A DNA stretch of 64,000 nucleotides from Octopus vulgaris (Eukaryota): positions 24,180,001 through 24,244,000 of the forward strand of contig OX597827.1 in NCBI GenBank assembly GCA_951406725.2, read 5' to 3'. Of the stretch, positions 1 to 57,776 are shown piece by piece (within the stretch, counting starts at the first letter, position 1; every line of letters starts with the position of its first letter). Below the pieces are notes generated by a model. It was not told where the DNA came from and searched no databases. It saw only the letters and a program-made list of their open reading frames with translations. A program made the position numbers and the translations under genes.

Positions 1-616
1 TCTAAGTACGATCTAGACGACCCGATGCGGTTTGTCCAAGTCCACATTGGCACATTCGGGTTTTCTAGTCGAAACCTGTCGGACAGCTGAAAGCGGCCGA
101 GTAGGTTGGCGAGACTCTTGCACCCTCCCCTCTCCTATCAGACGCTCCCCTGCCCACCCGATCGAAACGTTCGTCTAAGACAGCGTTCCAATCCCCAACT
201 AGTACTAGAGTGCGTGACGTTCCCAGGAAAACTTCCAGACGTTTGAAATAATCTGACTGCCCTGCTCCTGTCGGTGCGTAGGCAGCCAGCAGTCTGAAAG
301 CACCGCCGTTACTACCGTCGACGTCGAGGACCACCAACTTACCTTCCGGATCCAAGAAGACTGTCCTTATTTTCAGGTCCAGGCCCTTCCGAAACAACAC
401 CGCAGTACCACCACCGCCCGCTCCCGGCCGACACGGAGATAGAAATATCTCGTATCCGCCGAAAAGGGCTGCGAGTTCCTGCGGGTCGGAGAGCCTGGTT
501 TCACTGATGGCTGCTACATCCACATCATGAAACCTCAGGTCGTTTAACAGGTGACCCTGTTTCCAAGGTGACCCGAGGCCTCTCACATTCAAACAACCGA
601 TTCTAAGATTTGCCAT
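1..616 (-). pseudogene. Tx1 ORF2 apurinic-like endonuclease domain, frameshifted near 120
   Basis: GCLNVRGL, AISET, YAP and LVGDWN motifs of L1/Tx1 endonucleases. Confidence 0.88.
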
Positions 617-658
617 GTTTCAAAAGTTAGGGGGAAAAAAAAAAGGAGAAAGAAGGCT

Positions 659-2101
659 CTACTTACTGTTGTTGGTGGTGGGGGTGGCTCCCTTGTGCTT
701 TTGCACGGGTGCTTCAATAATATTTTTGTAAAGTTTCTGAGAGAAACTTTTCCCTAACGATCCCACATCGTTAGGGAATATTTGTTTTATTTCGTTGTAA
801 ACTGTTTTGTTTATTTTTATTGTGAGAATGTGTGCTGGTGGTGTGTTGTGTGTAGGTATTATGAAATCTGTAATGTTTGTGCTTGTTTTGTTTTTCAAAT
901 ACTCAACCAGTTCCTGGTTTCTTGTATTCACTGCTGTAATTGTGTCTGTGTTTGTTTGTGTCTGTGGCAGTGGCAGTAGTGGTGTCGAAAGTGTTGTTGT
1001 TGTTGTTTGTTGTTGTGAATGTGTATTGTTGTTGATGTTGTTGTTGATGTTGGGAAGTACTATTTGTTCGTGTTTCCCCTGTAAATCTTTTTGTTTTTTC
1101 CTCCTTTTCTTTTTTGGAGGCACTATGTTCCATTCTCCTTTGTTGGAATCAGAGCTCGCACAATCCGAGATCTCTTCATCCGGCAAAGGAATGGTTGAGG
1201 GGTCTGCTTCAGTAGCAGGACGAAAGGTTTTTGGTTCCGCCGGTATCGGTGGTGCCGCTGCTCCTGTTGCTGTTGATTTTGCTGCAGTTGATTTTCGAGG
1301 TACTGGTGTCGGTGTTGGTTTGGTGGCGGTTGTTGTTGTTGGAGGTGGTGTTGTTCGTCTTGGTGCTGGTGTTGGTGTGGCAGCCTTTGGTGTTTCGTGC
1401 TGTTTTTGTTGTTTCTGTTGTTGTTGTTGTTGCTGCCTCTTGCTATACTCCTCCATTCTCTTTTTCTGAATGGGGCAGTCCCTTTTCAGGTGGCTTTCGC
1501 TACTGCAGAGGAAACATTTTGGCTTTCGCCCCTCTACAGTAACATTTAGCCTGGTCCCATCCAGTAAGATGACAAAGTCAGGTATGGCATTGATGTTTTC
1601 CTGCTGGATCTGTACCAGCAGTTGAATACCCATGCCCGACCAGTTCTTTTCTCGTACCCTCCGAACATTCAGAATAGTGGCAGTGTCCTCTATGCCATAG
1701 AGGACAGCCGCCACTAGCCATGAGATTTTCTGTTCGGGGGGTATTGTGTTGATTGTTATTTTTTGTACCTTACGCCCGAGGTACGTCGGGACGAGGAACA
1801 AATGTTCATTTTGCAAGGGCGAAATGGCGTTCGCCCTTGCAAGCTCCTCTGTTGGGAAGCGAACCTCCACGGTTCCAAAACGCTTCCCTCTTGTCACATA
1901 ACTCTTCTGGCCCCAAATGGGCTTCAGAGCCATCTCTAACTGTTGTGGTGTGGCGTTAAACAATCTTTTAGTTTTCTTTTCGAAAACTTTATAAAAGATT
2001 GTTCTTTTGTTTGTCTCTTGTGTGAGTTGTTGAGGTGTGTTGAGGAAAACACTGTTTCCCTCCTTTCTCAACAAATCTTGTGCCATTTTTATGTCTTCCA
2101 T
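659..2101 (-). CDS. Tx1 ORF1 (gag-like nucleic-acid-binding protein with zinc knuckle)
   Basis: CFLCSSESHLKRDC (CX2CX4HX4C), polyQ and Thr/Pro-rich linker; frame stays open upstream to about 2431, likely original ATG at 2441. Confidence 0.85.
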   Translation of the reverse strand: MEDIKMAQDLLRKEGNSVFLNTPQQLTQETNKRTIFYKVFEKKTKRLFNATPQQLEMALKPIWGQKSYVTRGKRFGTVEVRFPTEELARANAISPLQNEHLFLVPTYLGRKVQKITINTIPPEQKISWLVAAVLYGIEDTATILNVRRVREKNWSGMGIQLLVQIQQENINAIPDFVILLDGTRLNVTVEGRKPKCFLCSSESHLKRDCPIQKKRMEEYSKRQQQQQQQKQQKQHETPKAATPTPAPRRTTPPPTTTTATKPTPTPVPRKSTAAKSTATGAAAPPIPAEPKTFRPATEADPSTIPLPDEEISDCASSDSNKGEWNIVPPKKKRRKKQKDLQGKHEQIVLPNINNNINNNTHSQQQTTTTTLSTPLLPLPQTQTNTDTITAVNTRNQELVEYLKNKTSTNITDFIIPTHNTPPAHILTIKINKTVYNEIKQIFPNDVGSLGKSFSQKLYKNIIEAPVQKHKGATPTTNNSK

Positions 2102-2661
2102 TGTTATTTCTACATCTTCCGAAATTTGCTTCGCAGCAGAAGCAAAATCGTTAGAGACTTTTACATTTTTTTGTTGGTTCTTGTCTGTGTTTGTGTCTGT
2201 TATAAGTTTCTTTTCCTCCCTCTTCGGTACAGCATCACTTGTTGAAGGTAGAGGGGGGAAATCAAGAGTAACGTCGAACGCGACGTCCAGACAAGCATTC
2301 TCCCTTCGAACGGTGCGCGTGCTTTCCGTTTCGGAAGGAAGAGCTCTGTTGCCTTTTACGGCCTGAAATGGGTTGTACGCAACCCGTGACGTTGTCTTTT
2401 GTTCTTGTGGAGGGGGTGTTGCAAGCTCGTTTCAAAGCCATTTTGTAAATATGTGTGTGCAAAAAATGTCAATTTCAAAATAAAAAACAGCAATTTCACC
2501 CCGAAGGGGCAAAATTTTCGCCCAACCGACGAGCTCCGCAAGAAGCCGGTCGGTTTGGCTACAAAATATTAAAAAATATTCAAGCTTATTAAAAAATTTT
2601 CCAATAAAATTGGCACAAAACTCACAGAGCTGATTCACGTACGTCCATCGGCGTCGGAAGG

Positions 2662-5600
2662 AATAATAATAATAATAATAATAATTAATTCTTTTTTATT
2701 GGCCACAAGGGCTGACACACATGATTGGTAAACATAAAGGGACAAAACAGGACGAAAGGTTACAAAGGTTTTTTTTCGCTTTTGAGAAAATCCGAGTAAA
2801 AACAGTTCAACAACGAAAAACTCTCAATAGGGGGAGGCGCTTCGAAAGGTTCCTGGTGGAAAAAACCCCGTAAAAGCCAACGGGAACCTGGTCAAAAAGG
2901 GGGGTAGAGAGTCCCTTTTCTCCTTTTATATTAATTTTTTGAATCACAGGCGAAACCTGAGAACCGGTCCATTTATACTGGCCATTCTCCCACCTTTCAT
3001 AAAACTTGCTATCAGACAGCACTCTCCTCTCTAACCTCATCTTCCTTTTCAAGTGAAACTTGAAAAAGTTGATGAGGCCTTGACCAAAGAGGAAAGTGTC
3101 TGACTTTAGCCCTTTCAAACGGGACAAGGGACGACGGTCAAGCGGTAATAGATGACGGATGCGATGTACGCATTTACCACCTCCGCTCGACCTTTCAGGG
3201 ACAGCTTCCTCTCGGCCTATTTCTGGGTGAGACATGTCACCCTGCTCATCACCTCTTCCCAGTTTTTAATCCACCTGGAGGTCCGGACCGAACCAGACCC
3301 CGAGCAGTTTAACGGGTCCGTCTGTCCAGTGCCCTACGACGCTGTTGGACGGCATGGGCTTGCCTCTCCAGGTGCCCAGTTGCAAGCCCACAGACTTTTC
3401 CGCGTTAATTTTTGCCCCTGTCACCGCTTCGTACTCGTTTAGTGTCTCGCCAAGCAGGCCAATGTGCCTGTGGCTCGACACCACCACGGTGACGTCGTCG
3501 GCATAGGCAGACACGCTGTTTCCGCCTTCTAGATCGCGCGGGATACCACTCAAAGCCTCCAACTTGCGCAGTAATGGCTCGAGAGTCAAAATGTACAAGA
3601 GGGAGGAGAGAGGGCATCCTTGGCGGACCGAACGCGAGATGTCGAACGGTTCCGAAAGGTGACCGTTCACCCGTATCACCGAGCAGGCTTTACTCTGATC
3701 CAAGTTGATCAAAGCCCCACCCGCGCCAGCGTCGTTACCCACCCTCTCTATGATGTAGCGCATGAGATGGAGGTTGTCGTGTATCGACCTGGTCGGCACG
3801 GCACATGTGTGCGTCTTGCCGACCAGCTTGTCCACGGCAAGCGCCAATTTCTTGGCCAAAATCTTCAACTCTGCATTGAGCAGAGTTATGGGCCGAAAAT
3901 TCCCTATAACGTCCCCCTTGCTTGGGTCCTTTTTTAGCAAAGCCACCACCCCTCAACAGACAAAAGCAAGAATTCTCCCGTTTTGCTGCCAGTTGCAGTA
4001 GACGTTTGCCAACAGGCCCGCAAACAAGTCTGGCATTGAAAAGTAAAGCTCGTAGGGCAGACCATCAAAACCCGGCGATCTACCTCTCGTGCAACTCTTC
4101 AACACCGCAGTACCACCACCGCCTGCTCCCGGCCGACACGGAGATAGAAATATCTTGTATCCACCAAAAAGGGCTGCGAGTTCCTGCAGGTCGGAGAGCC
4201 TGGTTTCACTGATGGCTGCTACATCCACATCATGAAACCTCAGGTCGTTTAACAGGTGACCCTGTTTCCAAGGTGACCGGAGGCCTCTCACATTCAAGCA
4301 ACCGATTCTAAATTTTGCCATGTATCAAAGGTGGGGAACAAAAAAAGAAAAAAGAGCAAAAGGCTCTACTTACTGTTGTTGGTGGCAGGGGTGGCTCCCT
4401 TGTACTTTTGCATGGGTGCTTCGATTATATTTTAAATAGTTTCTTTGAGAAACTTTTCCCTAGCGATCTGACATCGTTAGGGAATATTTGTTTTATTTCA
4501 CTGTACGTTGTTGCGTTGATTTTTATTGTGAGAATGTGTGCTTGTGGTGTGTTGTGTGTTGGTATAACGTAATCTGTTATGTTTGTACTTGTCTTTTATG
4601 TATGCAACGAGTTTTTCATTTTTTGTGTTTATTGCTGTAATCGTGTCTGTTGGTGTTGGTGTGTGTGGCAGTGGTAGTAGTGGTATCGAAAGTGTTGTTG
4701 TTGATGTTGGGAAGCACTATTTGTTCGCGCTTCCCCTGTGTGTCCTTTTGTTTTTACCTCCTTTTCTTTTTTGGAGGCACTGTGTGTCATTCCCCTTTCT
4801 CGGTATCAGTGCTCGCACAATCCGAGCTGTCCTGATCCGGAAAAGGGATGGCTGTCGGGTCCGCTTCATCAGCAGCAGGGCGAAAAATTGTTGGTTCTGC
4901 TGGTAGCGGTGGTGTTGCTGTATCTGTTGGTGATGGTGACTGTGTCGGTGAGTTTTCTTCTTCCTTTTGTTGGTGTTGGTTTGGTGGTTGTTGTTGGAGG
5001 TGGTGTTGTTCATCGTGGTGATGGTGTTGGTGTGGCAGTCTTTGGTGTTTCGTGCTGTTGTTGCTGCTGCTGCTGCCTCTTGCCGTTTGCCTCCATTCTT
5101 TTTTTGTGAATGGGGCAGTCCCTCTTTAGGTGGCTTTCGCTGCTGCAGAGGTAACATTTTGGCTTTCGCCTCTCCACAGTAACATTTAGCCTGGTTCCAT
5201 CTGGTAAAATGACTGAGTCAGGTATGGCATTAATGTTTTCCTGCTGGATTTGTACGAGCAGTTGAATACCCATACCTGACCAGTTCTTTTCTCTTACCCT
5301 TCGAACATCTAGAATAGTGGCAGTGTCCTCTATGTCTGGGAGGACAGCTGCCACCAGCCATGATATACTTAGTTCGGGGGGTATTATGTCAATTTTTATT
5401 TTCTGGACCCTCTGCCCGAGGTACATTGGAACGAGGAACAAATTTTCATTTTCCAAGGGCGAAATGGCATGCGCCCTTGCATCCCCCTCTGTTGGGAAGC
5501 GAACCTCCACGGTTCTGAAACGCTTCCCTCTGGTGACATAGCTCTTTTTGCCCCATATGGGCTTCAGAGCTATTTCCAATTGTTGGGGTGTTGCGTTAAT

Positions 5601-5712
5601 CAGTCTTTTGTTTTTCTTGTCGAAAACCTTGTAAAATATTGTCTTCTTATTAGTGTCATGTATGAGTTGTTGAGGTGTATTGAGGAAGACACTGTTCCCC
5701 TCTTTTATCTCA
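2662..5712 (-). mobile_element. Tx1-clade LINE, copy B: 5'-truncated and internally deleted, with 3' UTR, AATAAA and (ATT)n tail
   Basis: ORF1 remnant closely similar to copy A (5010-5579); EN start at 4321; RT motifs NFRPITLLN, RQGCPLS, YADD in 3266-3949; tail at 2662-2690. Confidence 0.9.
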
Positions 5713-6489
5713 TGTAGTAGTGGCTCTCATGGCTTCTCATCTTTACTGATTGGAAATGTTAATTTTTTCTTGGGCTACAGCAAATATTCTGCTCAATACC
5801 ACAGGTTTGCTTGTCAGTTGCTTGACCGTAACCAGTTGAGCATGTCCCTTAGTCTAATACTGGCTGGACATTTATTTTTTCGACCAAGCAACAACTTCTC
5901 CCTCACTACAAAATGGCCTAACCATCTTGTTTGAAACATGACCAAACCATTATATGAAGAATGCTGTTGATACTGTGGGTTCCTGTAAAAATAATAAAAA
6001 AAAGCACAAAAAACATCCCATAGGGGGTATGTCCATTCTTTAACTCCACCTGATTTTCCTCTTGGCCAATCAAATTTAGCATGGTCTCTTGCCTTGAAGT
6101 ATGCCTCAGGTTGTTCCAGGTTAATTTTGTATGATGTTCCCTACTCTTTCAGTTGCTATATAGCTGGATAAAGTTAGTGTTGTATTGACTGTCTACTGGG
6201 CACTCACTGTTCACCCTACATTATGCACGCAGCTGAATGAGACCCTTAAATTTTGTCTATTCAATAATCTGTGAAATGCTACAAATTTGAGGAAGACCCT
6301 TCCAATGCTGGTTTTTCTGTTGAGTGAGAAAGGTGGGGCAAACCAAAGGAACTAGTGGTGACCCTTTCTTTTGTGAGTGTTAGGGCCTGGCATATTGGTG
6401 ATGAGTCAAAATATTGCTTACAACAGACAGTTAAAAAATTCAAGAATGAAAGTTTGCAATACACTTTAGGATTTTATGAAATAGATTCT

Positions 6490-6830
6490 TTCTCGCATCT
6501 CCTTCTCCACATAAATTTGCAAAGATAAGAGCCAACCATGGAACGGTGTGTCCCACATCAGCATTTGTTTCCACACTTTAAAGATGCCCGTGTTCTCTGT
6601 TGAGTATGAGTCCCATCTTTTGAGTTAATAATTTCAATGCTATGGTTTCGTTTTATGTTTGAAATCATGACCATTGATTTCTGGGATAAGCTCACCACAG
6701 GTCACTGAAGATGGTGGTTCCTGGAAGAACTGAGTCATATGCAGTCCTCTAGTGTTTCATGGTTACGACTTGGTACTGCGTAAAGGAAAACTTCCCTCGT
6801 CTTGGGACATAGTCCTCCAATGTTATGTTC
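6490..6830 (-). mobile_element. Degenerate Merlin/ISXO2 (IS1016-like) transposase fragment
   Basis: Manual minus-strand translation across frameshifts: GGLCPKTREVFLYAVPSR..LPGTTIFSDLW*AY..NHS..GTHTQ..CGTHRSMVGSYLCKFMWRRR. Confidence 0.7.
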
Positions 6831-8184
6831 ATTTATGTTCGAATTTAATAAGTTATTTTACAAAATACTTCATTATTTTTTAAATCGTTTAAAGCAGGCA
6901 ATGTTTTTCAAAAAGAAATTTAATAACAGATGGGTTAATTATTGAATGGCTGTAAAATGTTAAATCAAAATTGCCAGTTTTTCTCACAAAAAATCTTTCT
7001 CTCTCTTCTTTGGACAGTTGAAAGCTAATTTATACTCTTTTAGATAATTTACAACAGTATTCTTCAGTTTCCAAAATCTGTTTAGAACAGCATCCACAGC
7101 ACACCTCACAATGGAGGTCTCTCAAGAGCAGCAAGTTCTTCAAAGATCCTAAAATTATAAATTCTTCTAGTAATTTCATATTGTGTTGTACCGTAAATAT
7201 TGGTACTTTTTCCAAACCTAAAGAGGATTTTCAGCTGTTTAGAAGCTATATCACTAGAGTTCCTTGGTGCATTATAACTGTTTCCTTGGACTGTCACTGA
7301 TTTTGGAAATATAACCGCTAAGGAAGCAAAATGTATCACTTTCCATGTTTTAGATAAAACTGACAGAATAAGGACCTTCAAAGTGATGTGCTTGACAATA
7401 CATTCTAGCAGCAACTGAACTTAACTGAAGGCACATTCTAGCCTTGGGTGGATGTTGTTGCTTGAATCTGTACAACACTGACCCTACCTGGTTAGCATCT
7501 GTTCAAGCACAACTAACTTGTGCCCCAGGGAAAAAAGTTTAGCCTCATTACAGAGCTCTTTGTAAACAGTTATAGAATATGTAGTAGTTGCACTTATTGG
7601 TTACTATGGAAACGGTGTTCTTTGCTTACTATGCTAACAGAACTGCATGGTGATATACTCACTTCTGATTGGCTAATTTTTCTGATTACCCAAATTTTAA
7701 AAACTTTAATGGCTAATAACTTTTTAGTAGTAAATATATAGGAAAATGACTTTCATTTTCATAATTAGTGTACAAAACTTAACCTATATACCAAATTTGA
7801 AAATAATTGGAACAAAATTGGAGATGGTGATTCACACCACCAAGATGCTAAATCCCTTACCCTTATCTACCATGGCTTGAGCACTAAGCCAATATACAGG
7901 ACGCCAGATTTTCAAAGGGTTTTTATTTTACATCAGATCAAGATTTTTAGTTTCAAAAATAGATAATCCAGTTGTCAGCTTCAAAAAGGTTTATGACCAT
8001 CTCTACACAGTTTGCAGTCTTCATCTGTGAATCAGGCGTATGCCTTAACAACAACTCTGTTGTTGCTTACTGTAGATTTGTCAATTTGAATTGAGAATTT
8101 ACTGTTTACTAGTCTTCATTGTATCTCTCCATGTCACATCTTACAGTCTTTCTGGTGTTCACAGAGCATGGACAACAGTCATGA

Positions 8185-8490
8185 TATAGGTAACTCTTTT
8201 TCCGTATTCAGATGGCTTTCCGTCTTCCATATCAACTAACCTTTTCTCCGCCAGGAGCTGAGGCGCAAGCCAATGGACTTGTCCTTGTTAACTTTTGCCC
8301 CTGCCACTGCCTCGTATCCTTTGATAGCTTCCTCTACTCAAGGTAGCTGAGCTTCATTGGACACAATGATGGTGATGTCATCTGCATAAGTAGAGATCGA
8401 CTTACCGATCTGATTTCATTGTAGGTACATCCCAAATTCTCCAACTTCTGCAGTAATGGCTCTAGCCAACATCGAAAACGGCTCCTACAG
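8185..8490 (-). mobile_element. Tx1 ORF2 RT fragment, probably the distal part of copy C
   Basis: LEPLLQKLE..STYADDITIIVS..YEAVAGAKVNKDKSIGL, homologous to the copy B RT. Confidence 0.8.
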
Positions 8491-9329
8491 TTTTGATTCC
8501 TCTTTCAAAAGTTTTACAGGCCAAATTGAACAGGCTGCACCTGTATCAACCAAAAACCTTTCTGTTGAGTTTGTGTAAAAAATGGAAAATACGTGACTTT
8601 TAATGTAGCTGTCTACAGATTTCATCGCATCTAATCTGTGTCTGAGAAGTTTCCCGAATTTTTTTGTTGTTGTTTAGAAAATCAAATGCACATGGCTTAA
8701 TCCACTTGAATGATCTGTCACCAAATTTTGCATTTTACCAACATATGGCATTAATCTTGGAACTTGGACTTCTTGATCACTTTCGCCATTTTGCGTTGTT
8801 TCTTTTAGCAGAGCGACTCACTCTTTGGAGTTGAAAACTTTCAATTTTCTTTGTCAACAACTCGAATTGTTTCTCATAAATTTCTTTCAATGCCTGTATT
8901 TCGGTAGAAATAGATGGGAATGCGTTCACAGATGCTCTAGATGACAATTCCAAAATGCCTTCTGCCAATTGTTAAAGATAGTTTTGATTCTTAACAGCCG
9001 AAAGCAAAGTTTGTCTTGTAAGGCAATTTAGTAAAGAAAACCTCTTTGAAGTAGGATTCTTCAATTTGTTGATCCCCAAGAAGTTTGTTCATTCTCCGAA
9101 GAAGTTGTGTTGGCTTCTTATTGCCTAATTCATAATTATTAAATAGTGAAAATTCTTTTGTTTTGAATTTGAAGTTCTTTTTAAGATTTCTTCCTTTATA
9201 GCAGAATATGAAACTGGTTCGATAGGATTTAAAAATAAATCTCTAATCTCATTGCTTAGAGGTGGAGGTAAATTACTCAGCATTATCTTATATTTTTGCT
9301 CTTCATTTGTTATACGGTTTGCTTTAACC
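8491..9329 (-). mobile_element. Gypsy (CsRn1/Kabuki-like) gag-protease remnant
   Basis: gag motifs KEEILKRT, KPTQLLRRM, CW.xAKFG..KPC; slippery GGGAAAC at 8649-8655; protease FLVDTGAACSIWP near 8520-8560. Confidence 0.75.
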
Positions 9330-12210
9330 CAGGGGTGGGCGAACTTTTTTGATCGCGGGCCGCACAGTGCGTCTTTGGAACCTTGGCGGGCCTCATTTAT
9401 AAAAATCAAGTGAAAATATTTTTAAAGGCGGTTATAGACCTATAAACACACAATTGATTGAAAGGAAATTTTGTGAAATATTCCTGGTTTAAGTGATTTA
9501 ATTTATTTTTTAGAGTATCGGGTTCATGTTTTTCGGTTATTTGCTCCTATAGTTGAAATTATTACAGGAACCTCGGTTATTTTGGACAGCCTGTTATTGC
9601 TTACAAATTGCCAGGAACGGAATTTTCCTAGTAAAATCTGCACTAATTGTGGACAACCACCTCTTAATATTATGGACAACCATAATTCTAGGATACCCAA
9701 AATAAAAGATTTTAAAGAGAAATAACAGTTTATTAATATGAATTGAAATCTGAAATTAGAAACGTCACCTGAAGCATTTATTTGAAAAACAAAGCGGCTC
9801 TGTAAATAACAATGTCAATGAGAATGATGCAGCTGACTACTGTCATTTATCAGTTTGTCAAAATTAGGTGTCAAGTTGCTTGTGCTGATTCTTAACACTG
9901 ACTGAAGATTTGAGTCTGTGAGAAGTGATCGATTCTTCCCCTTGTTAATTTTCATGATGGAGAAAGTCTGCTCACATATGTAAGTTGATGCAAACAACAC
10001 AAACATCTTTCTTGCAAATTTTTTTAGATTTTGAAACTTTTTTGAATGTAGAGAAGCATAAAACTCAACCAGTGGTTTACTTTCAAACATCATCTTTAAA
10101 GAATTGTCGGCTTGCAAATGAATCAGTTCTATCTGCAGTTCCTCGGTAGTTGTTTCAATGTCACAGGCAAGAGGTGAGTTAAGCAAATCGAACAGGCCTT
10201 CAACTGCCTTGAAATCAGCAAATCTTCTAATGAATTCCTTTTGTAAAGCCATCAACTGGGAACTGTACTTGTCCGATGATTCTTGTGTAACAGACTGTGT
10301 TTTCAGCAGAGGGAAGTGAATAAATTTTTGCTCATTCAGCTGCTTGGCAAAAAGTCCAAGCTTCCATTGAAAAGCTTTCACTTCCAGGTACAATTCATGA
10401 GCAAATATACCTTTGCCTTGCAGTTTTGTGTTAAGTTCATTCAGCTTCTGCATTATGTCCACAGCAAATGTAAAATCACAAACCCATTCGTCACTCTCCA
10501 TTTCGTTTAAAAAGTCACAGATGTCTTGCATTTTGAGAAACATAAGAATCTCTGCTTTGAGGTCCCATACTCTCTTAAGAACTTTTCCAATGCTTAACCA
10601 GCGGACATTTGTGTAGTACAGCACATCAGTAAAATCAGCATCCACATCCTCCAAGAAACTTTGGAATTGCCTGTGTTTCAATCCCCGTGATCTTATTAAA
10701 TTCACTGCACGCACCACAGGTTCGATGACATGTTTGAGTTTTAAAGATGACTTACAAAGGCTTTCTTGATGTATGATGCAGTGAAAAGACAACACACTGT
10801 GTAGTGGAAAATCTTCTTTAATTTTGTCATTCAATAACTTCACAAGGCCGGAATGTTTACCGGTGAGTGAAGGAGCTCCATCGGTTGTAATGCTGGCCAG
10901 TTTATTTAGGGTTAATCCAGACCTGATTGAACTGTTAATGACACTGTTGAACAAATCTTTTCCAGCAGTAGTGTCTTTGAGAGACTCCATAGATAACAAT
11001 TCCTCTGTAATTTCAAAGTTCTCGTCAATTCCTCTGATGTAAATGAGTAACTGAGCAGTATCCTGAATATCAGTGCTCTCATCTAAAGCAATAGAAAACC
11101 ACTGAAATCGACCACTGGCTGTTAACAGCTGTTCATGAATATTCACGGCAATTGCATCAATGCGAGGAACAATAGTTCTTCGTGACAGGGAAATGGCTTC
11201 TACTTTTGACTTAACTTCAGGACACACAACGCTGACAGCATCAACCATACAATCTTTGATAAATTCTGCTTCTGCGAATGACTTGTTTTGCTTTGCAATT
11301 TTGTTGGCCAATATAAAACTTGCCTTTGTCGCGTTCCTTTGTAAAGAGGAAGTTTTATCAAACACATTTTGCTGTTGCTTCAAACGTTTTGTCAGATCAT
11401 TTGCTTTCTTTAGCAGTTCTTGTTTTGATAAATTGTGTCCAAAATTGGCATGCTTCGTTTGAAAGTGGCGTTTCAAATTATATTCCTTGAACACAGCAAC
11501 TGTTTCAGAACAAATCAAACATGCAGCTTTCACTCCAACGTCGGTAAAGAAATACTTTTCAGTCCAATTTTCATTAAAAACACGACATTCCTCTTCAATT
11601 TTTCACTTTTTAGATAGCTTCGAACAACTCATTTTGGGTAAATTTTGTCAGACAACAAAAGCTAGTTTGAAACACTCGTGTCTGTACTAAATTCAAATAA
11701 TCGATAGAGTGAATGATAACCAACCACAGCTCTGTGTCCAGAAAAAGCTGGTTCAAGCCCTTTTATTAACCTGGCCGGCTTCTTCATTGGAACGAAACGC
11801 ATCGTCCATCATGCCCTCTTCACCATCTATCATGTGATTTATTTATTTGAATGTTTCAAGCATATCGATTGACTCGTTGTATTGCCACAATACTTGTTTC
11901 ATTGTTCTATTAATTTTTGAGTTTGTAGGGTCTGACGAGAAAACAGAAAAGATATCTTCACCCAGAAATGTGTTTTATTATGATGTCATGGGAATATTTC
12001 TCGAAATTTTTCATCGCTTCACAGTAGCTGAAACAAACAGCGGACAATTTTGTGATGGTACGAAACAGTGAACTGAAATAAAATGCAAACTATTGTGAAT
12101 TACCGTACAACTGAAACAGTTACGAAGTATCTGCATAGAAGTTGGGATTTATAAAAGCTCTCGGCGGGCCGCATGAAAACCTATGGCGGGCCGTAGTTTG
12201 CCCACCCCTG
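9330..12210 (-). mobile_element. hAT DNA transposon, Buster/SPIN (GTF2IRD2-like) type, full length
   Basis: TIRs caggggtgggcgaact (9330) and agtttgcccacccctg (ends 12210); subterminal gcgggccgca motifs; internal transposase. Confidence 0.95.
9815..11632 (-). pseudogene. SPIN-like hAT transposase, 605 codons with a single TGA at codon 10
   Basis: MSCSKLSKK*KIEEECRVF..; BED-like CLIC..HFQTKH; catalytic LDESTD, TTDGA and CEQTFS; HCIIH; RWLS. Confidence 0.9.
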
Positions 12211-14970: not shown

Positions 14971-15020
14971 TTACATATTTAAGAGCTTTCAACCACTCCT
15001 GTAGTTTCATCAGAAATGTA
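14971..15020 (-). ncRNA. Minimal type I hammerhead ribozyme motif in the PLE 3' region
   Basis: Minus strand: tacattt CTGATGA aactac-agga-gtggtt GAAA g-ct-cTT aaatatgtaa; 6-bp helix II; helix I pairs with one 2-nt bulge. Confidence 0.65.
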
Positions 15021-17092: not shown

Positions 17093-17379
17093 TAAGTTTG
17101 CAGAGTTTTGCCTGTTTTTATATTATTGGAGGATGAAGTGGAGAGAGTGAGTGTGTGTATAATGGGGAATAGAGGGAGGGAGAAGGAGAGTGATAGGGAA
17201 ATAGAGGGAGGGAGAAGGTGAAATAGAGAGAATATGGGTGTGTGTGTTTTAAAAATGTGTTTTTGTGTTTTTCTTTTTTTCTTTTTGGGTCCCTTTGTAT
17301 TTTTTAGATGACCATGTAAGAAATGGAAAGAGAGAAGGAAAAAGGGGGTTTGTTTTTCAATAGTAGGAGTGTTGCTATG

Positions 17380-17915
17380 TACGCACACACACAAATATCC
17401 TTACAAATATATACATACACACACACATATATATGAAGGAACTTATTATGTGTGTGTGTTTTCATAAACATTCATACATATATTGTGTGTCCTTGAAAAT
17501 GAGAAAGAAAGAAAAAAAGGGAAAAAATAAAATATAAAAATAAAAGAAAATATTGTGTCCCTTTTCCTACTTGGCACTCCCTGTGGGTTTCTAAAAGAAC
17601 AGGCGGTTTACCATTCAATGTTTGATATACATACATAAACACATATCTATATATACACACACACACACATACATATACACATATATATATACATACAGAC
17701 ACACATATATATATACACATGCATATATACACATGCATATATACACACATACATGCACATACACATTTACACATACATATATACCCACACATACATGCAT
17801 ACATACATATATATGATCACATATACCAACATGTAAACATACAAATATATTTGCACATTTACACACATATATATGTCTACATGCATATAAGAATGTATAA
17901 ACATATACATACATT
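17380..17915. repeat. Compound (CA/TA)n microsatellite inside the PLE 3' region
   Basis: Directly visible CA/TA runs. Confidence 0.9.
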
Positions 17916-18099
17916 GTTAGAAGTTTAAGGTATTAAATTGTATAATTGTATATATAAAAAGAAAAGAGAGAATTCTTTCATTTGTATATAAAGATATAGA
18001 AAGATTCTTTCTTTTTTTATGTATCACATATTTTAACAGATCAGGTTTTTTTTATTATCATCATCGTTTGATTTTTTGCTACTTATTTTTACTTTTTTT

Positions 18100-20890
18100 T
18101 TAACCGTTCAATTTTGGGCTAAATTTTTCTATAAAATGCATTTCCATAGCTTTACGATATTCTGGGTCATGCCGTGAGCATTTGTAGAATGGAATAATTT
18201 TAAATTTTCCATTTCCGCATACATCCAGGTGTTTTCTTAATGGTATCTTGCATAACTCTTCCTGCTTTATATGTTGTTTATGTATTCTAGTGCGTTGGCA
18301 GAGAGAGTTGTTCGTTTTGCCAATATAATTTTCCTTGCAGTTTGGGCAGGTAATGCAACATATGAGGTTTTGTGTTTTGCAGGTCATATTTGCATTGATT
18401 TTAAAGAGAGGGCCACTTTTGAATTTTAAGTGCGAACCAAATTCTAAGTATTTGTAATTATTGTCATTGTTGCATATTCTGCATCTTTTGTCTCCACATT
18501 CTGTTACTGAGAATTTTGGTCCCTTCTCCAATCTGAATTCTACCCTTGTGAGGTGCTTTTTAAGGTTTTTCAGTTGGCGTTTGCTGTTAAGTAAAATTTT
18601 TTTTGCTCATCAGGTTCATCATTTTGGGGCTTTGTAGAAGGATGGGTAAGTTTGATCTTATAGCCTGGAAAATATTTGTTATGCCAGAACTATGTGTGGA
18701 GACATGGTATTGTCTGTTTGTTGGTTTTTTTCTTTTGGTGTTCTTAATTCGGTGGTGTTGAGTTTCAGTGCCTTTTTAAAACTTTCCTTTATCATTCCTG
18801 AGGGGTATTTTTGTATTTTGAGGAAGTCCTGGAGTTCGTCGAGTCTAGTTTTAGATGTTGCAGTGTTTGTTACTATAGTGCATATGTGTCTTGCTATGCA
18901 GTAAGGTATATTTCTTTTACTGTGTGATGGGTGGCAAGAGTCAAAGTTGAGATAGTGATGTGTGTCTTTTTATTTTGTAATAAATGTCTGTAGTTACTCT
19001 GCAGTTTTGTATTTTTATGAGAATGTGCAGGAATGGTAATTCATTAAAGTTGGATTCTGTAGTAAATTTTATGGATGGGTGCAATTTGTTCAATATCTCT
19101 TTAAAGGTCTCTTAGGTCCGTGTCTGAGTTTACCCAAAAGATGAAGCAATCATCAAGAAATCATTTCCATTGCTTCCTGGTCAAAGGTTTTTTTCTACTT
19201 CTTTGTAGAGTTTTTCCCCCGGGAACCCCATGACTAAGTTAGCTTATGAGGGTGCAAAACGCATACCCATAGCTGTGCCCTTTATTTGTTTATGTTTTGT
19301 GATCAAATTTGTGTTTTCCTCTAGTACTATGCATGTGGCTTTGGTGATGAGATCCTTCTTAAAATGTTCATTTTATCTCTATGTCTTGTCACTCAGTATT
19401 CCACCGCTTCCAGACCTAGAGTGTAGGGAATGTTGGTGTATAGGTTGGTGACATCGAAACTTGTGAGTACGGTACCTTCTGGGACAGTGTCCAGGATATG
19501 TTGTAAGAAATCGATGCCATCTCTTACATAGCTTGGTAGGAGGGGGCATAGAGGCTTAAGTATGATGTCCAAAAAGTGGCTAAGTTGTTAGGTTGGTGCT
19601 TGGGGTCCCGCCACCATTGGCTTTGGTTTCAGGTCTGTAGGTCTTGGTATTTGCATGTATTTGTTTTTTTTTTGTTCGTTAATGGCATTTTGTATTGCCG
19701 AGCTTTTTTTGATTTTCGGCAAGCCATAGAAGTTGCTCTCTTTGGTTTGAGAGTAGCATTTATACTCTTTCTCTTTTTCTGTGAAAGAGTCTCGGTATTC
19801 TTCGATCAGTTTTCTGATTTTTGATCTTGTTGTCTTTTCTGGGTGCCTTGGTTCTTCCTTGTAATACGTTTCGTCTGTCAGCTTTTCCAGTATTTTGTCT
19901 TTATAGTAGTCCTTATCCATGATTACTATCGCTCCACCCTTATCTGCTTCTTTTAAGATGATTGATTTATCATTTTTTGGTGTTTGTAGGGATTCTTTTT
20001 CTTCTTTAGAAAGGTTTTGTTTGCATTTTTGTGACTTCAGGGGAAATTTGGTGATTGTCTCAATATGTGTCCAGATATTTGTCACTTCCCTTGTAGGGGG
20101 TGAAGTGGGATTTCTTTTTGACTATTGATCCCTCATCAAAATCCTTATTTCCTAAGACTTCTAGAAGTCGTAGGTGACGGCTGAAGTGTTCCACATCTGA
20201 TTCCAGTTCGACCAAATTAGGTGTGGGTGCAGGGGTGAATTTAAAACCCCTTAGTAGTAGTGTCATTTCATTCTTATTTATATTTCTATTTGATAAATTT
20301 ATTATTTTGGGGTCTGTGTGTTTGTTTAGAGTCTGTATTTTATTGGGTCCGGTGGGTGGTTTCGGAAGTTTTTCCCTAAAAAAGAAAGTGTGTGGTTTTC
20401 TCTTTGTCTTCTGAGTTCGGGAATTTGTTTTCCATATGGTGGAGGAGGTGTTGGTTTGAATCTACTGTATGGGAGTCTTTAGTATTGAGCTCTGTAGCCC
20501 TCCCACCTGTCATAAGTTATGGGTCTTTTGGGGTGTTTAGAATTTCTTGGTTTTTCTATGTGGACTGTTGTGGTTTTTGTGTTTTTTGTAGTTGGATATT
20601 TCATCATTTCTTCGGTGTACCTGTCCAGTGTTTTTGGTGTTGTAGGCAGCTGGTTGTCTTTTATGTCCTTTTTGATTACTCCATTCAGTGTAATTGTGGT
20701 CATGGGTGGTTGGAAAGTGTGGGTTCCTCATCCTCACTCGGTGAGATGTTTCTACTTTTCCCGTATATGGAGTTGAGAGATATTCATTTTGGTAGCTTTT
20801 TCTGGTTCTGTTTTGTTTGTAGTTTGAGTTTGTATTCCATTTTCTTGTATTTTGTTGTTTTTGGTGGTGTTGTCGTGTTTTTGTTGTCAT
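18100..20890 (-). mobile_element. Penelope-like element (Neptune type): disrupted RT plus GIY-YIG ORF; 3' region extends to about 14860 across the pogo insertion
   Basis: GFKFTPAP, ADKGGAIVIMD, FYGLPKI, SFDVTNLYTNIP, GTAMG, FLDDCF, CGDKRCRIC Zn finger, CPNCKENYIGKT..E..FI..LN. Confidence 0.88.
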
Positions 20891-23697
20891 GGTTGATTTG
20901 TCTGTACATCACCCCCAATACTTCTTGTGTGAGTGTGTGTGTGAGGAGCTTACTGTTGTTAGTAGTTATTAATCATGTGCCACCTTTCAGCAGTGTTAAA
21001 TTTGCTTAGTGTGTTGAGAAACAGCAAAGCGTTGTTGAGATGCGGTCACTTGTGTCTCGATGATAGTGATGGTGGTGGCACAAGTGAGTTACATTGACAA
21101 AGGACGAGAGATTTGCAGAGACGGTTCAACTGACATCTTGGTTGGTGAGTTGAGAAACTGTGTAGTATTCTATTGAGGTGACCAGTGTAAGATATTTCAT
21201 TGCTTCATAATCAATCCTGGACAATAACTCGTTACTGTTACTTTTTTTCATCTAAAAACAGTTACCTGGGTTCAGTTTCTAGGCAATGAGTTGGTGTTTC
21301 GGACTCTGCCAAATATCCCTGCTACAGGGGAATTTTTTTTACAGGTATCACAGCAAAGTTTTTTTCTTTCTCTTTATATCATCAGAAAAATGAATATTTT
21401 TACATTTCATCTTGCATTCACAGAATAACATTTTCTGTAATTTTTCTTCTCTCATTTATTTATAATTTTTGTTTAGAATATTTTTCCTTTGTTATATTTC
21501 CATTATCTGTTATCTTAATCAGTGTCTGGAGATGCTGCTGATTATTTTATGATCCATGCTTATTTAGAATGCAAAATCCTTTTGTATGTATTCCCGAAGG
21601 TGTTATCGAATTCCTTTTAGTAAATTGTCATCCGATGTTCTGAAGTTGGACAGAATATCATAAAAGAGGAATCTTTCACTTATGTAGTGGAACAAAGAAT
21701 GAATGTGGGTAGAGTAAGGGATTGCTGTTTCAATATTCAGCGACTGTGTTGTGCAGCTCTGTAGCAAAACTGACAAATCAAATTGAAACAAATTGTGTAA
21801 TAATCTAGAAAGAGCTAGTAAGAAAGTAAGGCAAACTCGTGGTACAGTAGTGACAACTTTCAAGGGGTTTATGTTTATTGGTGCTCTTCTTACAGGTGAA
21901 TTAGCATGTATAGGAAAGCACTTTGTGATGCAAACTTGGGATTAAGGTAGTTGAGAAAGCAAGTAAATGCATTAGATCACAAATTAATTGGGCCTGTCCT
22001 TTTGAAAGGACCACTGGTGTACTATTTGATGTCAGTCACAAGATTAACTGTAAAAACTAGTAATGTTACCAGATAAAATGTGTGTGTGGTGGGGTGTGAA
22101 CAGGGAATCTTTATGTGGGGGAGGGGGGTGCATTTACAACCTGGCCGAGAGATTTTGAACACCACTGGCATGTAGGATAGAAAGTTTTCTACATCAGTAT
22201 TCTATGATAAATACAACAGCATTAAAAAAAAAGAAACCCTTAAACTCTAAATATTGATCCATCCACACAAGGCAGCATCAGAAGATACATGAAGCTGCAA
22301 TGTATAACAAAAGAGAAATTTATACTTGAAAAGAAATATGAGAACTATGCATGTGTGTACGGCTTGGTCAAAGGCTATACAGGATTCTCAGGATGTAATG
22401 GTGGGAGGACCTAGTGTATATAGTCATGTAGGGGGCTACAGGTAAGATAATACACACCTTTCCTCATGGGCTACAAACTTCATCCTTGCAGTTTTGGCAG
22501 ATGTCTGTGTGATGAAAATTTTTTACTATATAACTCTTTTCCTGGCTAAATATAACCTGCATTTTCTGCTGTTATTAAAATAAGGTTTGCACTTCTCCAA
22601 AATTTTCCACTTGATGTTGTAATCTGTGGTGCTTTTCTTGAAAATCCATTCATGTCTAGCCAAGGCTGTGACATTACATTTCTCCTAGATATTGAAGTAG
22701 GACTTATGATTGATCTGAAAAGACCTTCTGTTGGGGCTCTGACATTATCTTTGCTTCATATACAACTGCCTTGGTGTGGGCCTACCTATCAATATCATCT
22801 TTACAGTAGGTGCACAGCTAAAAGAAACTCTTAAAGTGGGTTAGGGTTAACCCTAATTTTTACACACCCTATTCATCCAAGAAAAGTGCTTATTCACTAA
22901 GCTAAGGAAGATCTTACCCACAAAAGTTTTTGTTTTAGGGCATAGTGGGTTACTTTTTATAGTCACCAGTTTTTCTACAACAGTTATAGTAATCGTTATT
23001 TGAAGGCTGCTTATTTTACACTCATTTACTAGTGTATATTTTGTCTTGGGTGGAAGTTGATATTGATAAAGCCATCCCTTAACTTGTAAAGGATATCAAT
23101 AATTATTACCTCTCAAGTTAAAATGTACGTTATGTTAGTGTACGGACACTAATGTACACTTATACGTCTTACGAAAATGTATGTTGATGATCGTGTCCTT
23201 ATTACATACCGTTATATAAAAAAAAAAACTTTACAGATTATTAAACAGAATTAAACATGTTAAACAGGTTGGGAAGAATTGCAGAAAGATGAAATATCAT
23301 TTTATATAGTTTATTTCTATACATTCATACGTATATTATTTTTCTAGCTAATTCTTAGGCTTAAACAATGAAACACGACGACCAAAATAGGTGTCGGACT
23401 TTTAAAGAGTATTTCTCATGGTAACAACCATTCCTCTGGATTTGAGTGACGTGGATTCATTTAGACAACCACCGACACTAAAGTTTTCTCCCAAATCTAG
23501 GGTTTTTGTAACTGCTCATCTTGACTTTTAAGAATTGAAATTGCATAAAAATATTCTTTAATTTTCAGAATTCCTATATGAGCAGTTATTTCAACCAATG
23601 GGAAATCTACAATCATATTTCCTCGGTTACACGACATTACGTCATATTGTCGGCTGTTATGAATTGGCTTGTAGTGACGTGCGCAACTTCTCCAAAG

Positions 23698-24395
23698 CTA
23701 GTTTAAATGTTTAAAGGTGCATGGCTTATGCACTTGTGTGCTTTGTCTCCAAATTTGGAGTGGTACCAACACAGTCCGGACTTTGACTGTGAGGAACAAC
23801 TACGACTACGTAATCTTGAGAAACGCTTGTCATCGCGTCCATCCTTTTGGTAAGAATTTCAATTTCTTTAGAAAAGCCATCAATTGAGTCTGCAGAAGAT
23901 ACCTCGGAGCAGACGCAAGCAGCACGTGATGATGGCTGCACGGAGAATTCAGCAATTTTATCAGCCATGGTGGCTATTTGGTCCACAGTATTTGATTCAA
24001 GTGCTGTGGCCAAAATTGTTTGTATATTGGAAGGCAACCTTGAAAAAAATATCTTCCGAAGTAGAGGAGCGTCAGCGGATTTACTGCTTAACTCTCTCAA
24101 ACGGCGCAAAAATTGTGACGGTGTTCTATCCCCCAACTCCTCATCTGCCATTAGCTCATTAAATCTACTTTCCTCACTTCTTGTATTTCTACGTAAAATT
24201 TCTGCCTTCACAGGCATCTGGACTAGGATCTGTAATGAGATCTCTAGCAGTAATTGCAAGTTGCGGAAGCATGCAGCTATAAAGAAGTTGCAATTGTTTC
24301 TCAGAAGAAATACTACGAGCTGAAAAATGTGCCTCTAGTTGCACAAACCAAAGTGTTGCATCTCCAGTGAAAACAGCTAACGATGCAAAAGACAC
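23698..24395 (-). mobile_element. Gypsy (CsRn1 clade) gag remnant
   Basis: LWFVQLEAHF, ELGDRTPSQFLRRLREL, FFSRLP, LCWYHSKFGDKAHKC; ends T TTA AAC TAG. Confidence 0.85.
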
Positions 24396-24510
24396 TGTGT
24401 CGCCAGGCGCTTCTGTCAGCAGCGGCGGATTCCCATGTTTGGGTGTTGATCTGGCATAGCTTTAGGTCCTTCTTGCAGATATCCTTGAAGCACAGTTTAG
24501 GGCATCCCAT
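24392..24510 (-). mobile_element. RTE-type LINE ORF C-terminal fragment
   Basis: G.PKL.FKDICKKDLKLCQINTQTWESAAADRSAWR. Confidence 0.7.
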
Positions 24511-24514
24511 ATTA

Positions 24515-25400
24515 CAACATTATTGTCTTTATATTTCATAACACAAACTGCATATGGCGATGTCAAGTTAGATGATCTCTTGGGTTGTTTTTTGAAAGTT
24601 TTTCTTTTCACTAGAGGACAATTTAGCAATCCGTTTTCTCTAACAGTGCCTGTTGCACAATTCCTGCTGATCCGAACTCAACAGGTAGTTTACTCGACAA
24701 GCAATAGTAATTTTTCCTGTGTCCCTTTTTTTTTGGATGCTATACATTAATGAATTAAGATGTTGGGGAATCTTTTTCCAGCTGGTTCTTTGAGAAATGA
24801 TTGTTCTTGCTACCATAAATGTTTTGATTTGTTTTCTGGTTTTGAACTCTTCTCAATCCATATCTCGTGCATTTTCTCAGCTATATTTCCTGTTACCTTT
24901 AACATTTCTTTGAGAATTTTATTATCGAAAGCTTCATAGTTTGCCTTGAAACAAGATTATTAATGGAAATATCTGTTTTGAATTTCATGTGGTGAGTTCC
25001 TTTCCTCCTGGTTCTCCTACAATTTATTCAATCATGCATGAGTAAGATATGGGTGCAGCTAATTAAGCCCAATTGAATATATTTCAGCATATTTCTCTCA
25101 TTTGTATGCCTTCCAGATAATTTGTTTACATATGTCCACATTTTTTTCTTTTTAATACGCTTCCTTGTCTAACTTTGGTTAAATTCTAATATCCAAGATG
25201 CTTGTGGTAAACATTCTGTTGGTAGGTTCAGATAAATTCTTAATATCAAGATTTAGTTGTCTACCTATTTGTTTTCCTCGTTTAGGATGCTTTTCCATTT
25301 CTCATAAAATAGATGTTTGTGGATCTGTATACATTATCATCAAAGCAAATTATGTCTCAACTTGGAGACACTGTATGTCCTAATTTTTTTTCTTGAAATT
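24515..25400 (-). mobile_element. Degenerate piggyBac (PGBD-like) transposase fragment
   Basis: Manual translation NYY..GI/CATGTVRENGLLNCPL..KKQPKRS..KDNNVV. Confidence 0.65.
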
Positions 25401-26515
25401 CTTTGTGATGTTTGTTCTACCTTGAGTTGCAGATAGTTCCTTGTCACTCCTGCTGTCAAAAATGAGCCAGTGCTTAACCTGTTAGATACTTAAAGGCAAC
25501 AATGCTGAAAGTTGTCTACGTAAAACAGGGAAAAAATTACGCCTATACATGGCACAGCGCATGTGAACATCCGACGTTCTATGAGTCGGGAAAAGAATTA
25601 AGCTAATGCAAACGTGTTGCAAAAAACAAGGCAGTACACGTGCAGAGCAAAGGTGCATGAATGCAATAGGGCTTGCCAGACCGAAAAAACAGCAATGAAT
25701 ATGCCAGTGGTTGAGCGATTATATGCCTCATTCGTACAGGAACAAAAGTATGGCATGCTGGCGCGTTATAATGGACAAACAACCCTCTCTATGTATACGT
25801 GACCGACCTAGGGTCTACAGAAATGAGGTGTGTCCACAAAGGCAAATTAGCATGGAAAAACAAGTGAGAAAAGCATGTGTGACGTATGTGTGTGTACGTG
25901 TGTGCGACAGAAATACAAACAAGGTGAATGCGAGCAAAAATAAAAACACAGCGCCTAGGAAAAAAGTCTCTCAGGGCTATTTCAGACAAGATGGAATTAG
26001 TTTACCAGTCTGTAATAGCCTGATACACAATAGCAGTTCGTTCTGTAACAGAATGTTGAAGATCACAAATGCAGATGCCGATTGAACACAATGTGTAGCG
26101 GTTGTAGCTTCGATGCTGTGACAGGTTAAATCGTTACAGAAGAATCTCGCAGATAGACTGGGCTGTTAATTCCTTGGTGTGCCATGCACAAACAGCAAGT
26201 GGGCTAAACTTCCGCGAGTTGCTATTTACATCTTGTTGTGTCGACGGTGTTGAAGGCGACTGTGGTGTGGACTTGAGACAACATTGTTCTTAGTGGTGAT
26301 GGCGACGAAGATAACGACGACGGCAAAGAAAAAGCATCGATGATATGAATGCGTCCGTCATTATTGTTGAAGAATAAGAAAGGCTCCTTCTATAACTGTT
26401 TGTGGTGGCCGGAAACAAATCGTCGAAAGATGATGACTGCGTAGAGTTAATCGTGTTCCGACTCGCAGAAAACTGGATTTCTTTGTTGTTAAGTGATCTC
26501 TGGTTTTAGACCAGA

Positions 26516-26534
26516 ATCACGTCGGGGGTCACCA
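26516..26534 (-). promoter_or_regulatory. Primer-binding site complementary to the tRNA-Trp 3' end
   Basis: TGGTGACCCCCGACGTGAT versus canonical TGGTGACCCCGACGTGAT of CsRn1-clade elements (one extra C). Confidence 0.85.
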
Positions 26535-26535
26535 G

Positions 26536-27124
26536 TGAAACGAAATGTGAATATCTTCTCTGGACCTTTTGGGGGTGCGAGAAGCAATCACTATCCGTTG
26601 CTTTTAAATCCAGATTCTACCAGTCAGAGAAACACAAAACGCGGACGTAAAAAATATATATCTACTTTATTCTCTTATGACAGTAACAGATAATTGGTAT
26701 ATCTGGGTATCCCTTTGGTATAGATGTGTCAGAGCTGAACGTTATCGCTGTAGAATTTACAATGTTCAAATGCTAACGACACTGGTCAAAGATGGCGTCC
26801 GGAACAGGGAGAAGATGTGGTCTGCAACAATTTGGTTAAAGTCTTCAGCCAACTGCTATCAAATTCGGACAGCGAGAAAATATACGTCCGTTGCCTTCGG
26901 TCGCTTTGTCTCAAGTCAATGACTGCTGCTGGACGCTAGTGGTCAACGTCCTACAATCCCCCTGCCTCGGCTAACTGCCACGTAGGCAAAAGGGTCCTTC
27001 TTCCGGTGCTTCGCGCATGCGCGAGAGGGCCCTTCCTCTCTCTGCCTTGGTGAAGGCACAAACTCCGCATGCGCGAAACAGGAATGGACGGTGCGCGCGC
27101 GCGCCGCTGTATAGCGTCACTACA
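26536..27124 (-). mobile_element. 5' LTR (589 bp, TG...CA) of the Gypsy element whose gag lies at 23.7-24.4 kb
   Basis: Minus strand starts tgtagtgacg and ends ..tttca, 1 nt before a PBS. Confidence 0.8.
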
Positions 27125-27640
27125 AGTTCAACTCCAATCGACTGTTAATTATCAGGTTGAGGCAGTGGATCAGTAGAGCCTTTTTATAAGTAAATTACCA
27201 ATGTTCCTCTCTAAGGCTAGTATGGAGGCATTTATTTCCTTGGTGGTGTTGCCACATCTGGTCAGGTGTTTGCAGAAGGAGGATGCATTGGTGAGATGCT
27301 CCTTAATTCAGATGTGGAGTGGTTGTGCTGTGCTACCGATGTAGTGAGCATTTGTAGCATCATTTTTGCTATACTATGCATATATGTTGGCACATGTTGG
27401 TGTCATGAATGGGACAGTCTGTTAGTATGCAGGGATGTTGTACTGCATGGGACCACCTCATTGATGCAGAGGAGAACATATTCCTTCCCTTGTAGATAGC
27501 AGAATTGGTGAATCTCTATGTTGTGTATAAGTGTAGAGGAGACGTAATTGGTTTTAAACTTGGTTAGGAATTCTGGGGGGAAGATTTAAGGTGGATATAC
27601 TGTTGTCAGTAGTACAATGTGTTTATCAATAAGGATTAGC
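27125..27640 (-). mobile_element. Second Penelope-like element remnant (GIY-YIG endonuclease end)
   Basis: NAHYIGSTAQPLHI*IKEHL..CKHL..ALLI..IINSR. Confidence 0.7.

Positions 27641-57744: not shown

Positions 57745-57776
<32 letters not shown>

Follow-up and report, generated by a model that had tools for sequence, protein, structure and literature searches.

A transposon block between POMK and NOA1

We analysed a 64,000-nucleotide window of the Octopus vulgaris genome (contig OX597827.1 of assembly GCA_951406725.2; G000:C14:24,180,001-24,244,000 in an assembly of 2.8 Gb and 227 contigs), together with sequence upstream of it (L002-L021), to which negative positions refer. The left part of the window (1-27,700) belongs to a block that is dense in transposable elements (TEs) and poor in short interspersed nuclear elements (SINEs), and in which every coding TE that could be oriented lies on the minus strand. 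The initial annotation had described a block of 27 kb and proposed it as a flamenco-like, uni-strand cluster for PIWI-interacting RNAs (piRNAs). The TE block itself was recovered, but it is larger than described: it measures about 41 kb and runs from -13,089 (G000:C14:24,166,911) to about 27.7 kb, with its left end outside the window. Across the block, T exceeds A (skew of +0.12).

The plus-strand gene upstream of the block is POMK (PDB 5gza, E 4e-70). Its terminal exon (L003:2571-3332) ends at about -16.7 kb, and we read an earlier coding exon at L004:9549-9893. The block begins 3.6 kb past the POMK stop codon; POMK is on the strand of the precursor RNA predicted below, and all TEs of the block are antisense to it. 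On the other side, NOA1 (29,386-49,588, minus strand), the best named relatives of which are molluscan, has its last coding exon at 29,386-29,547, with some 1.7 kb between its end and the block. NOA1 thus faces POMK; the initial annotation had inferred a plus-strand precursor convergent with NOA1. Since terminal exons of POMK and NOA1 flank the block, it is intergenic between two convergent genes. The ratio of observed to expected CpG is highest at -28 to -24 kb and at 48-52 kb, which are likely the 5' ends of POMK and NOA1. It is only 0.23 at -16 kb, so that a host-type CpG island is absent at the left edge of the block.

The elements of the block are described here from left to right; all are on the minus strand unless stated otherwise. 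After a Gypsy-A piece (L002/L003, about -12,660 to -11,502) comes an inverted 39-bp piece that matches the intact copy at 100%, where it stands beside the other end of the element. This arrangement could result if the Gypsy-A piece had turned over in place, from the plus to the minus strand, or if templated DNA had been inserted where a deletion was joined; a Gypsy piece that arrived in sense may thus have become antisense later. A head-to-tail array of Tx1-A, a long interspersed nuclear element (LINE), occupies 1-5,726, with further copies to -11.5 kb; it carries Pfam APE, RT and zf-CCHC domains and includes the first two Tx1 copies (A and B) of the initial annotation. The Tx1-A family forms head-to-tail arrays with a period of about 5.87 kb at C1:202.33 Mb, C4:93.8 Mb, C5:1.62 Mb and on contigs C47 and C50, has many copies at 98-99%, and is a young, probably self-targeting LINE.

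After the array comes a piece of a high-copy retroelement (5,719-5,853), a 3' fragment that carries a (TAT)n tail; its orientation is inferred from this tail, the side of which is known from five natural copies. A Merlin transposase remnant (6,408-6,730; tblastn E 2e-5 with proteins from outside the block, profile E 0.028), a TTAA-ended piece of a miniature inverted-repeat transposable element (MITE; 6,848-6,939, not orientable), an older Tx1-like reverse transcriptase (RT) fragment (8,242-8,465; tblastn E 1e-12, profile E 4e-6) and a Gypsy-B gag fragment (8,490-9,329; DUF7041 E 4.8e-12, with a 77% copy on C15) come next. A full-length, SPIN/Buster-like hAT element (9,330-12,210) has an open reading frame (ORF) of 595 amino acids and both terminal inverted repeats (TIRs). 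It has no target site duplication; its 8-bp flanks are unlike, which suggests a later deletion. The hAT joins the Gypsy piece to a Tx1 piece between two different nnnTAnnn flanks, a junction that likely arose when two insertions recombined or when DNA beside the element was deleted. The Tx1 piece is the 5' part of Tx1-C (12,212-14,776; ORF1 and the start of APE). It adjoins a (TAGA)n repeat, and the 5' end of other Tx1-C copies likewise carries an (ATCT)n/(TAGA)n microsatellite (window 14,560-14,776; L212-L215), which suggests that this LINE targets microsatellites.

Beyond a weak, 40-bp Gypsy-related fragment (14,897-14,936; E 4e-7; co-oriented with minus-strand pol in L090/L091), a Penelope-like element (PLE1, 14,943-20,903; RT and GIY-YIG) carries, nested in its 3' region, a full-length pogo element (15,016-17,094; ORF of 458 amino acids, DDE_1 E 2.7e-30) that inserted cleanly, with TIRs and a TA duplication. 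A second Penelope-like remnant (PLE2, 22,336-22,823; tblastn E 5e-6, DNA copies at about 70%) precedes a multi-copy non-coding element (22,942-23,668, not orientable), a Gypsy-A gag fragment (23,675-24,400; DUF7041; 97% local duplicate at -13,089 to -11,934) and the 3' remnant of an RTE LINE (24,391-24,543; tblastn E 6e-8). A homolog search for a wider Penelope profile gave no result. At 25,524-27,124 lies a non-coding long terminal repeat (LTR) element with a 5' LTR (26,536-27,124), 1 kb of internal sequence and no 3' LTR; it has TG...CA ends and, on the minus strand, what we take to be a primer-binding site. Its relatives (L226-L235) are multi-copy, about 2.7 kb long, with CpG-rich LTRs of about 590 bp; no ORF was recognised in the portion within the block. 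The LTR, which faces into the block, holds GCGCATGCGC-like and AAGATGGCG motifs, presumably NRF1/YY1-like. The block ends with a remnant at 27,140-27,640 in which a GIY-YIG-like motif was noticed by eye (Pfam and homolog searches were blank, and it was not counted) and a piggyBac-type, TTAA-ended MITE (27,655-27,790, not orientable). Possible remnants at 21.6 and 7.1 kb had no Pfam match and were also left uncounted.

Element orientation and its genomic background

A strand-neutral Pfam scan was applied to all 233 stop-to-stop ORFs of at least 52 amino acids that start before 28,600 (125 plus, 108 minus). TE domains were found in 10 minus-strand ORFs (APE three times, RT, zf-CCHC, DUF7041 twice, hAT, pogo DDE_1 and GIY-YIG) but in none of the 125 plus-strand ORFs. 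Moreover, when a library of ORFs from the same genome was cleared of every block-derived protein and used in tblastn, 14 of 14 in-block matches were on the minus strand. The claim that every orientable coding TE here is on the minus strand was thus upheld. The count given with it, 12 insertions from eight superfamilies, was confirmed for 11 insertions but not for a coding piggyBac: neither tblastn nor a profile of eight own-genome piggyBac proteins detected one, and just non-coding, TTAA-ended MITE pieces were found. The coding-oriented insertions represent seven superfamilies.

Tx1-A and B lie in one head-to-tail array, and their family forms such arrays elsewhere; all copies were therefore counted once. 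Gypsy-A was counted once because the piece at 23.7 kb is duplicated (97%) near -13 kb. The tally leaves out the MITEs, which could not be oriented, and three remnants without assignment. The coding-oriented insertions are then Gypsy-A, Tx1-A, Merlin, the older Tx1-like RT fragment, Gypsy-B, hAT, Tx1-C, PLE1, pogo, PLE2 and RTE, all 11 on the minus strand (p 0.001). Non-coding marks place three further insertions on the same strand: the LTR element, the tailed 3' fragment and, weakly, the 40-bp Gypsy-related piece. These three and the Tx1-like RT fragment are additions to the initial list, and the overall tally is 14 of 14 (p 1.2e-4). At junctions, two tiny inverted pieces (88 and 39 bp) lie on the plus strand.

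The hAT retains both TIRs, and pogo retains both TIRs and its TA duplication and splits the Penelope-like element cleanly. Both elements must therefore have entered as DNA, so that their orientation is informative; a chain of cDNA copies made by template switching was ruled out on the same grounds. Private changes relative to the family amount to 0.8-1.0% in hAT (22 in 2,859 columns), pogo and the LTR element, and to about 6% in PLE1, whereas Merlin, RTE and PLE2 are old remnants. The block thus holds young copies of genome-dispersed families (hAT, pogo, LTR element), as a piRNA cluster would. That young copies and old remnants share one strand suggests that the bias acted over a long time.

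Thirty 40-kb control windows were passed through the same pipeline: 15 arbitrary ones, 10 on other Tx1 copies and five on other Gypsy or pogo copies. Among the 15 windows with at least six elements, none was one-stranded (the closest was 8:1), although three windows with four elements or fewer were. The TE-densest controls were mixed (+8/-7, +5/-5 and +6/-3), as were all five windows on other Gypsy or pogo copies. In the first 25 control windows, adjacent elements were on the same strand in 49 of 98 pairs and on different strands in 49, and the neighbours of Tx1 copies outside the block were co-oriented in 14 of 36 cases (14 versus 22). The dense, nearly all one-stranded TE fragments of the block (14 of 14, versus none of 15 controls one-stranded) are what a cluster would be expected to contain. 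The scarcity of SINEs claimed for the block was also borne out: high-copy repeats cover 0.9% of it versus 17.6% of 27.7-64 kb, 18-22% of the upstream sequence and 6.1-22.8% of arbitrary windows, the lowest control being at 3.0%. Counts of the RTE-tail SINE motif, at 1.2 per 40 kb, were too sparse for use. The joint pattern of orientation, TE load and SINE absence was seen in none of the 30 control windows.

Two regions met in this comparison deserve mention. An arbitrary control (L102-L105, C1:50.00-50.04 Mb) has eight plus- and one minus-strand coding TE fragments, mainly LINEs, and is possibly an intron of a minus-strand gene. The region G000:C4:97.8-99.9 Mb (L250-L261) is TE-dense, partly SINE-poor and of mixed orientation, with several full Gypsy-A copies, and is a candidate dual-strand or heterochromatic region.

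Outside the block, a large gene on the minus strand (L013:685-1218, L016:174-554, L017:7529-7912), which encodes EGF and PSI domains and which we take to be attractin/MEGF8-like, lies upstream of POMK and is possibly head-to-head with it near -28 kb. The CpG-rich zone upstream of POMK also contains a minus-strand ORF of 187 amino acids (L004:3756-4319) with a basic start resembling a retroelement ORF1 and no Pfam match. Within an intron of NOA1, a plus-strand RTE (37,620-43,709) is split by a minus-strand Helitron fragment (38,712-40,438). The region 49,600-64,000 is CpG-rich at 48-52 kb, then shows an excess of T over A and fewer plus-strand AATAAA hexamers, and possibly holds a plus-strand gene sharing the promoter of NOA1. 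Searches for tRNA genes and Rfam families found nothing.

Transcription signals and competing explanations

In five block copies, transitions affected 41 of 1550 CpG positions versus 31 of 5903 non-CpG positions (5.0x), and in outside copies 130 of 14,734 versus 202 of 54,244 (2.4x). The excess of CpG decay in the block corresponds to a stratified odds ratio of 2.0 (p 0.008). In octopus, 5-methylcytosine (5mC) is described on expressed gene bodies and past their ends, not on TEs (PMC9476566). Since 5mC tracks expressed gene bodies, the CpG excess fits a transcribed, methylated domain, as we infer the block to be, but it gives no strand. A word search of sequencing runs with window 17,900-25,500 returned 24 rows, of which 20 contain all or part of it and 16 at least half; none is recorded as RNA. 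Fourteen rows guessed to be RNA (four studies, 61-105 million contig letters) contain 0.31-0.81 of the words, and four other guessed-RNA rows 0.00-0.04. We treat these rows as a lead, counted neither for nor against transcription.

We favour, at somewhat better than an even chance, the reading that the block is a uni-strand, plus-strand piRNA source fed by read-through from POMK; that it is a piRNA source, whatever its promoter, is slightly more probable. In this model, RNA polymerase II would continue beyond the POMK poly(A) sites and through the block on the plus strand, as the position of the block, 3.6 kb past the stop codon of a gene on the precursor strand, would allow. The precursor RNA, antisense to each element, is predicted to be cut into primary piRNAs. 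These would target active Tx1, hAT, pogo, Penelope and Gypsy families, and selection would have kept antisense insertions of active families while sense ones were lost. Of the cluster proposed by the initial annotation, the uni-strand anatomy thus fits and POMK is the likely source of the plus-strand precursor, but the term flamenco-like is loose.

Several observations weigh against this reading. A plus-strand Merlin remnant (-14,453 to -14,237) lies 1.2 kb left of the block, where the precursor would read it in sense; with it included, the tally is 14 of 15 minus (p 0.001). By a rough estimate, about 84 same-strand runs of at least 12 elements are expected by chance genome-wide at the control density. 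Therefore, although no control with enough elements was one-stranded, orientation alone is indecisive against the genome background, and the case depends on its combination with TE load and SINE absence. The coding cover of the block, 56%, is inflated by library proteins derived from the block itself. The CpG excess is strand-blind, is reversed in one of the five strata, has p 0.085 without one (other) Tx1 stratum and could spread from either flanking gene. Strand asymmetry of substitutions is absent or underpowered (A>G 28/4828 versus T>C 33/6007, p 0.9; 284 private changes). Plus-strand AATAAA hexamers are not depleted in the block (20 observed versus 15.8 expected). Ahead of the block, two more occur after the POMK stop codon, and read-through would need to pass both.

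The same geometry of POMK and NOA1 would also fit a long plus-strand 3' extension or long non-coding RNA downstream of POMK from which sense insertions were purged, with no special piRNA output, and the CpG excess would suit any transcribed domain. However, purging alone leaves the high load of young, diverse TEs and the absence of SINEs unexplained. The transcribed neighbours, NOA1 and the upstream minus-strand gene, have 18-22% high-copy repeats and TEs on both strands, and the AATAAA hexamers of the plus strand were not purged. We regard this explanation as rather unlikely.

That the block is a neutral hotspot of insertion and deletion, where nesting, self-targeting by Tx1, local duplication and chance yielded a one-way run, we consider unlikely. 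Tx1-A does form arrays on itself, Tx1-C lies beside (TAGA)n, pogo is nested in a Penelope-like element, a local duplication is present, truncations are many and the hAT lacks a target site duplication; the number of runs expected by chance is also in favour of this explanation. However, these dependencies are already merged in the tally and TE-dense control regions are mixed. Moreover, the old remnants (Merlin, RTE, PLE2) are on the same strand and are likewise free of SINEs.

If a uni-strand piRNA cluster were driven by a separate promoter near -14 kb, in the manner of flamenco beside DIP1, the canonical poly(A) signals after POMK would be accounted for and the plus-strand Merlin would lie outside the precursor. 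This reading is nevertheless improbable, as the interval from -16 to -13 kb has no CpG-rich, host-type island of the kind seen at the 5' ends of POMK and NOA1. Transcription of the block on the minus strand, with the TEs in sense, could come from read-through of NOA1, which ends close by, or from the inward-facing 5' LTR at 27.1 kb, and none of our results fixes the strand. Such a transcript would, however, express the open hAT and pogo transposase ORFs and meet 47 minus-strand AATAAA hexamers in its path, and we know of no selective reason for a sense bias; we consider it very improbable. Lastly, the large intron of an unseen plus-strand protein-coding gene, raised by the initial annotation, or a template-switched cDNA chain is the least credible: antisense bias of intronic TEs is established and cDNA chains are co-oriented by construction, but the flanks are terminal exons of two convergent genes (that of POMK with its stop codon) rather than exons of one gene on one strand, real introns of this genome are rich in high-copy repeats, no plus-strand ORF has a credible Pfam match, and the TIRs and TA duplication described above remain.

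Relation to known piRNA loci and significance

The strong one-way TE orientation of Drosophila flamenco (flam) and flam-like loci is detectable from the genome alone (PMC10643416), a property shared with the octopus block. Loci syntenic with flam, however, measure 227-1,085 kb and owe their bias to Gypsy alone (PMC10643416), whereas the octopus block, at 41 kb, holds seven superfamilies with Gypsy in the minority; LINEs, Penelope-like elements and DNA transposons dominate it and share the bias. As the bias of flam is driven by Gypsy, the block falls outside a strict definition of flamenco. In addition, flam has its own promoter (PMC10643416; bioRxiv 2022.08.22.504762). The strict definition also includes activity in somatic cells of the ovary.

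On our best reading, the block has more in common with mammalian piC-DoGs, the read-through clusters of mosquitoes and the clusters of slugs than with the Gypsy-specific flamenco. The piC-DoGs of mouse, human and hamster sit downstream of genes (PMC11615739); like the octopus block, they stretch over tens of kilobases just past the end of a gene and are densely filled with TE fragments antisense to it. As described there, piC-DoGs capture LINE-1 and endogenous retroviruses, while the octopus block has also taken in DNA transposons and Penelope-like elements. The core piRNA clusters of Aedes, Culex and Anopheles are read-through clusters (bioRxiv 2022.08.22.504762). As in the octopus, they start less than 5 kb past the end of a gene on the same strand, and a promoter of their own is not evident in the account given. 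Those of Anopheles show enrichment of every TE class but SINEs, which recalls the SINE-poor octopus block, and those of Aedes trap non-retroviral endogenous viral elements (bioRxiv 2022.08.22.504762), none of which was seen in the octopus block by the Pfam scan.

Among molluscs, the clusters of the slugs Arion vulgaris and Deroceras laeve are described as mostly uni-strand with antisense TE fragments (PMC11615739, PMC12506671). They are one-strand molluscan loci, and in the Arion example the packed TE fragments are antisense, as in the octopus block (PMC11615739). Clusters of the pond snail Lymnaea are enriched for young Gypsy and hAT elements, and PIWI genes are reported in Octopus bimaculoides (PMC6128900). 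Unlike our proposal for octopus, the available accounts of slug and snail clusters do not report read-through from an upstream gene (PMC11615739, PMC12506671, PMC6128900). By title and opening of the abstract, no cephalopod piRNA cluster was found in the literature searched, which omits most subscription journals, nor was a piRNA cluster linked to POMK found there. Tentatively, and at clearly less than an even chance, the block would be both the first piRNA cluster of a cephalopod and a trap of the piC-DoG type that fixes every class of TE in antisense, cut-and-paste elements included.

The feature described here is genuine and out of the ordinary. It makes a good candidate read-through, uni-strand piRNA cluster, which would add a member to a kind known from other animals. 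Octopus genomes are TE-rich and their 5mC does not mark TEs (PMC9476566), so that control by small RNAs is likely to matter. At the POMK-NOA1 locus, where strand and promoter are predicted and unique remnants at 5.9-8.2, 20.9-22.9 and 24.4-25.5 kb can serve as anchors, a test would be sharp and cheap. If the proposal is true, the genome-only signature of strand bias and SINE absence could call more such loci in octopus, and the biogenesis of read-through clusters would reach the lophotrochozoans and span mammals, mosquitoes and molluscs.

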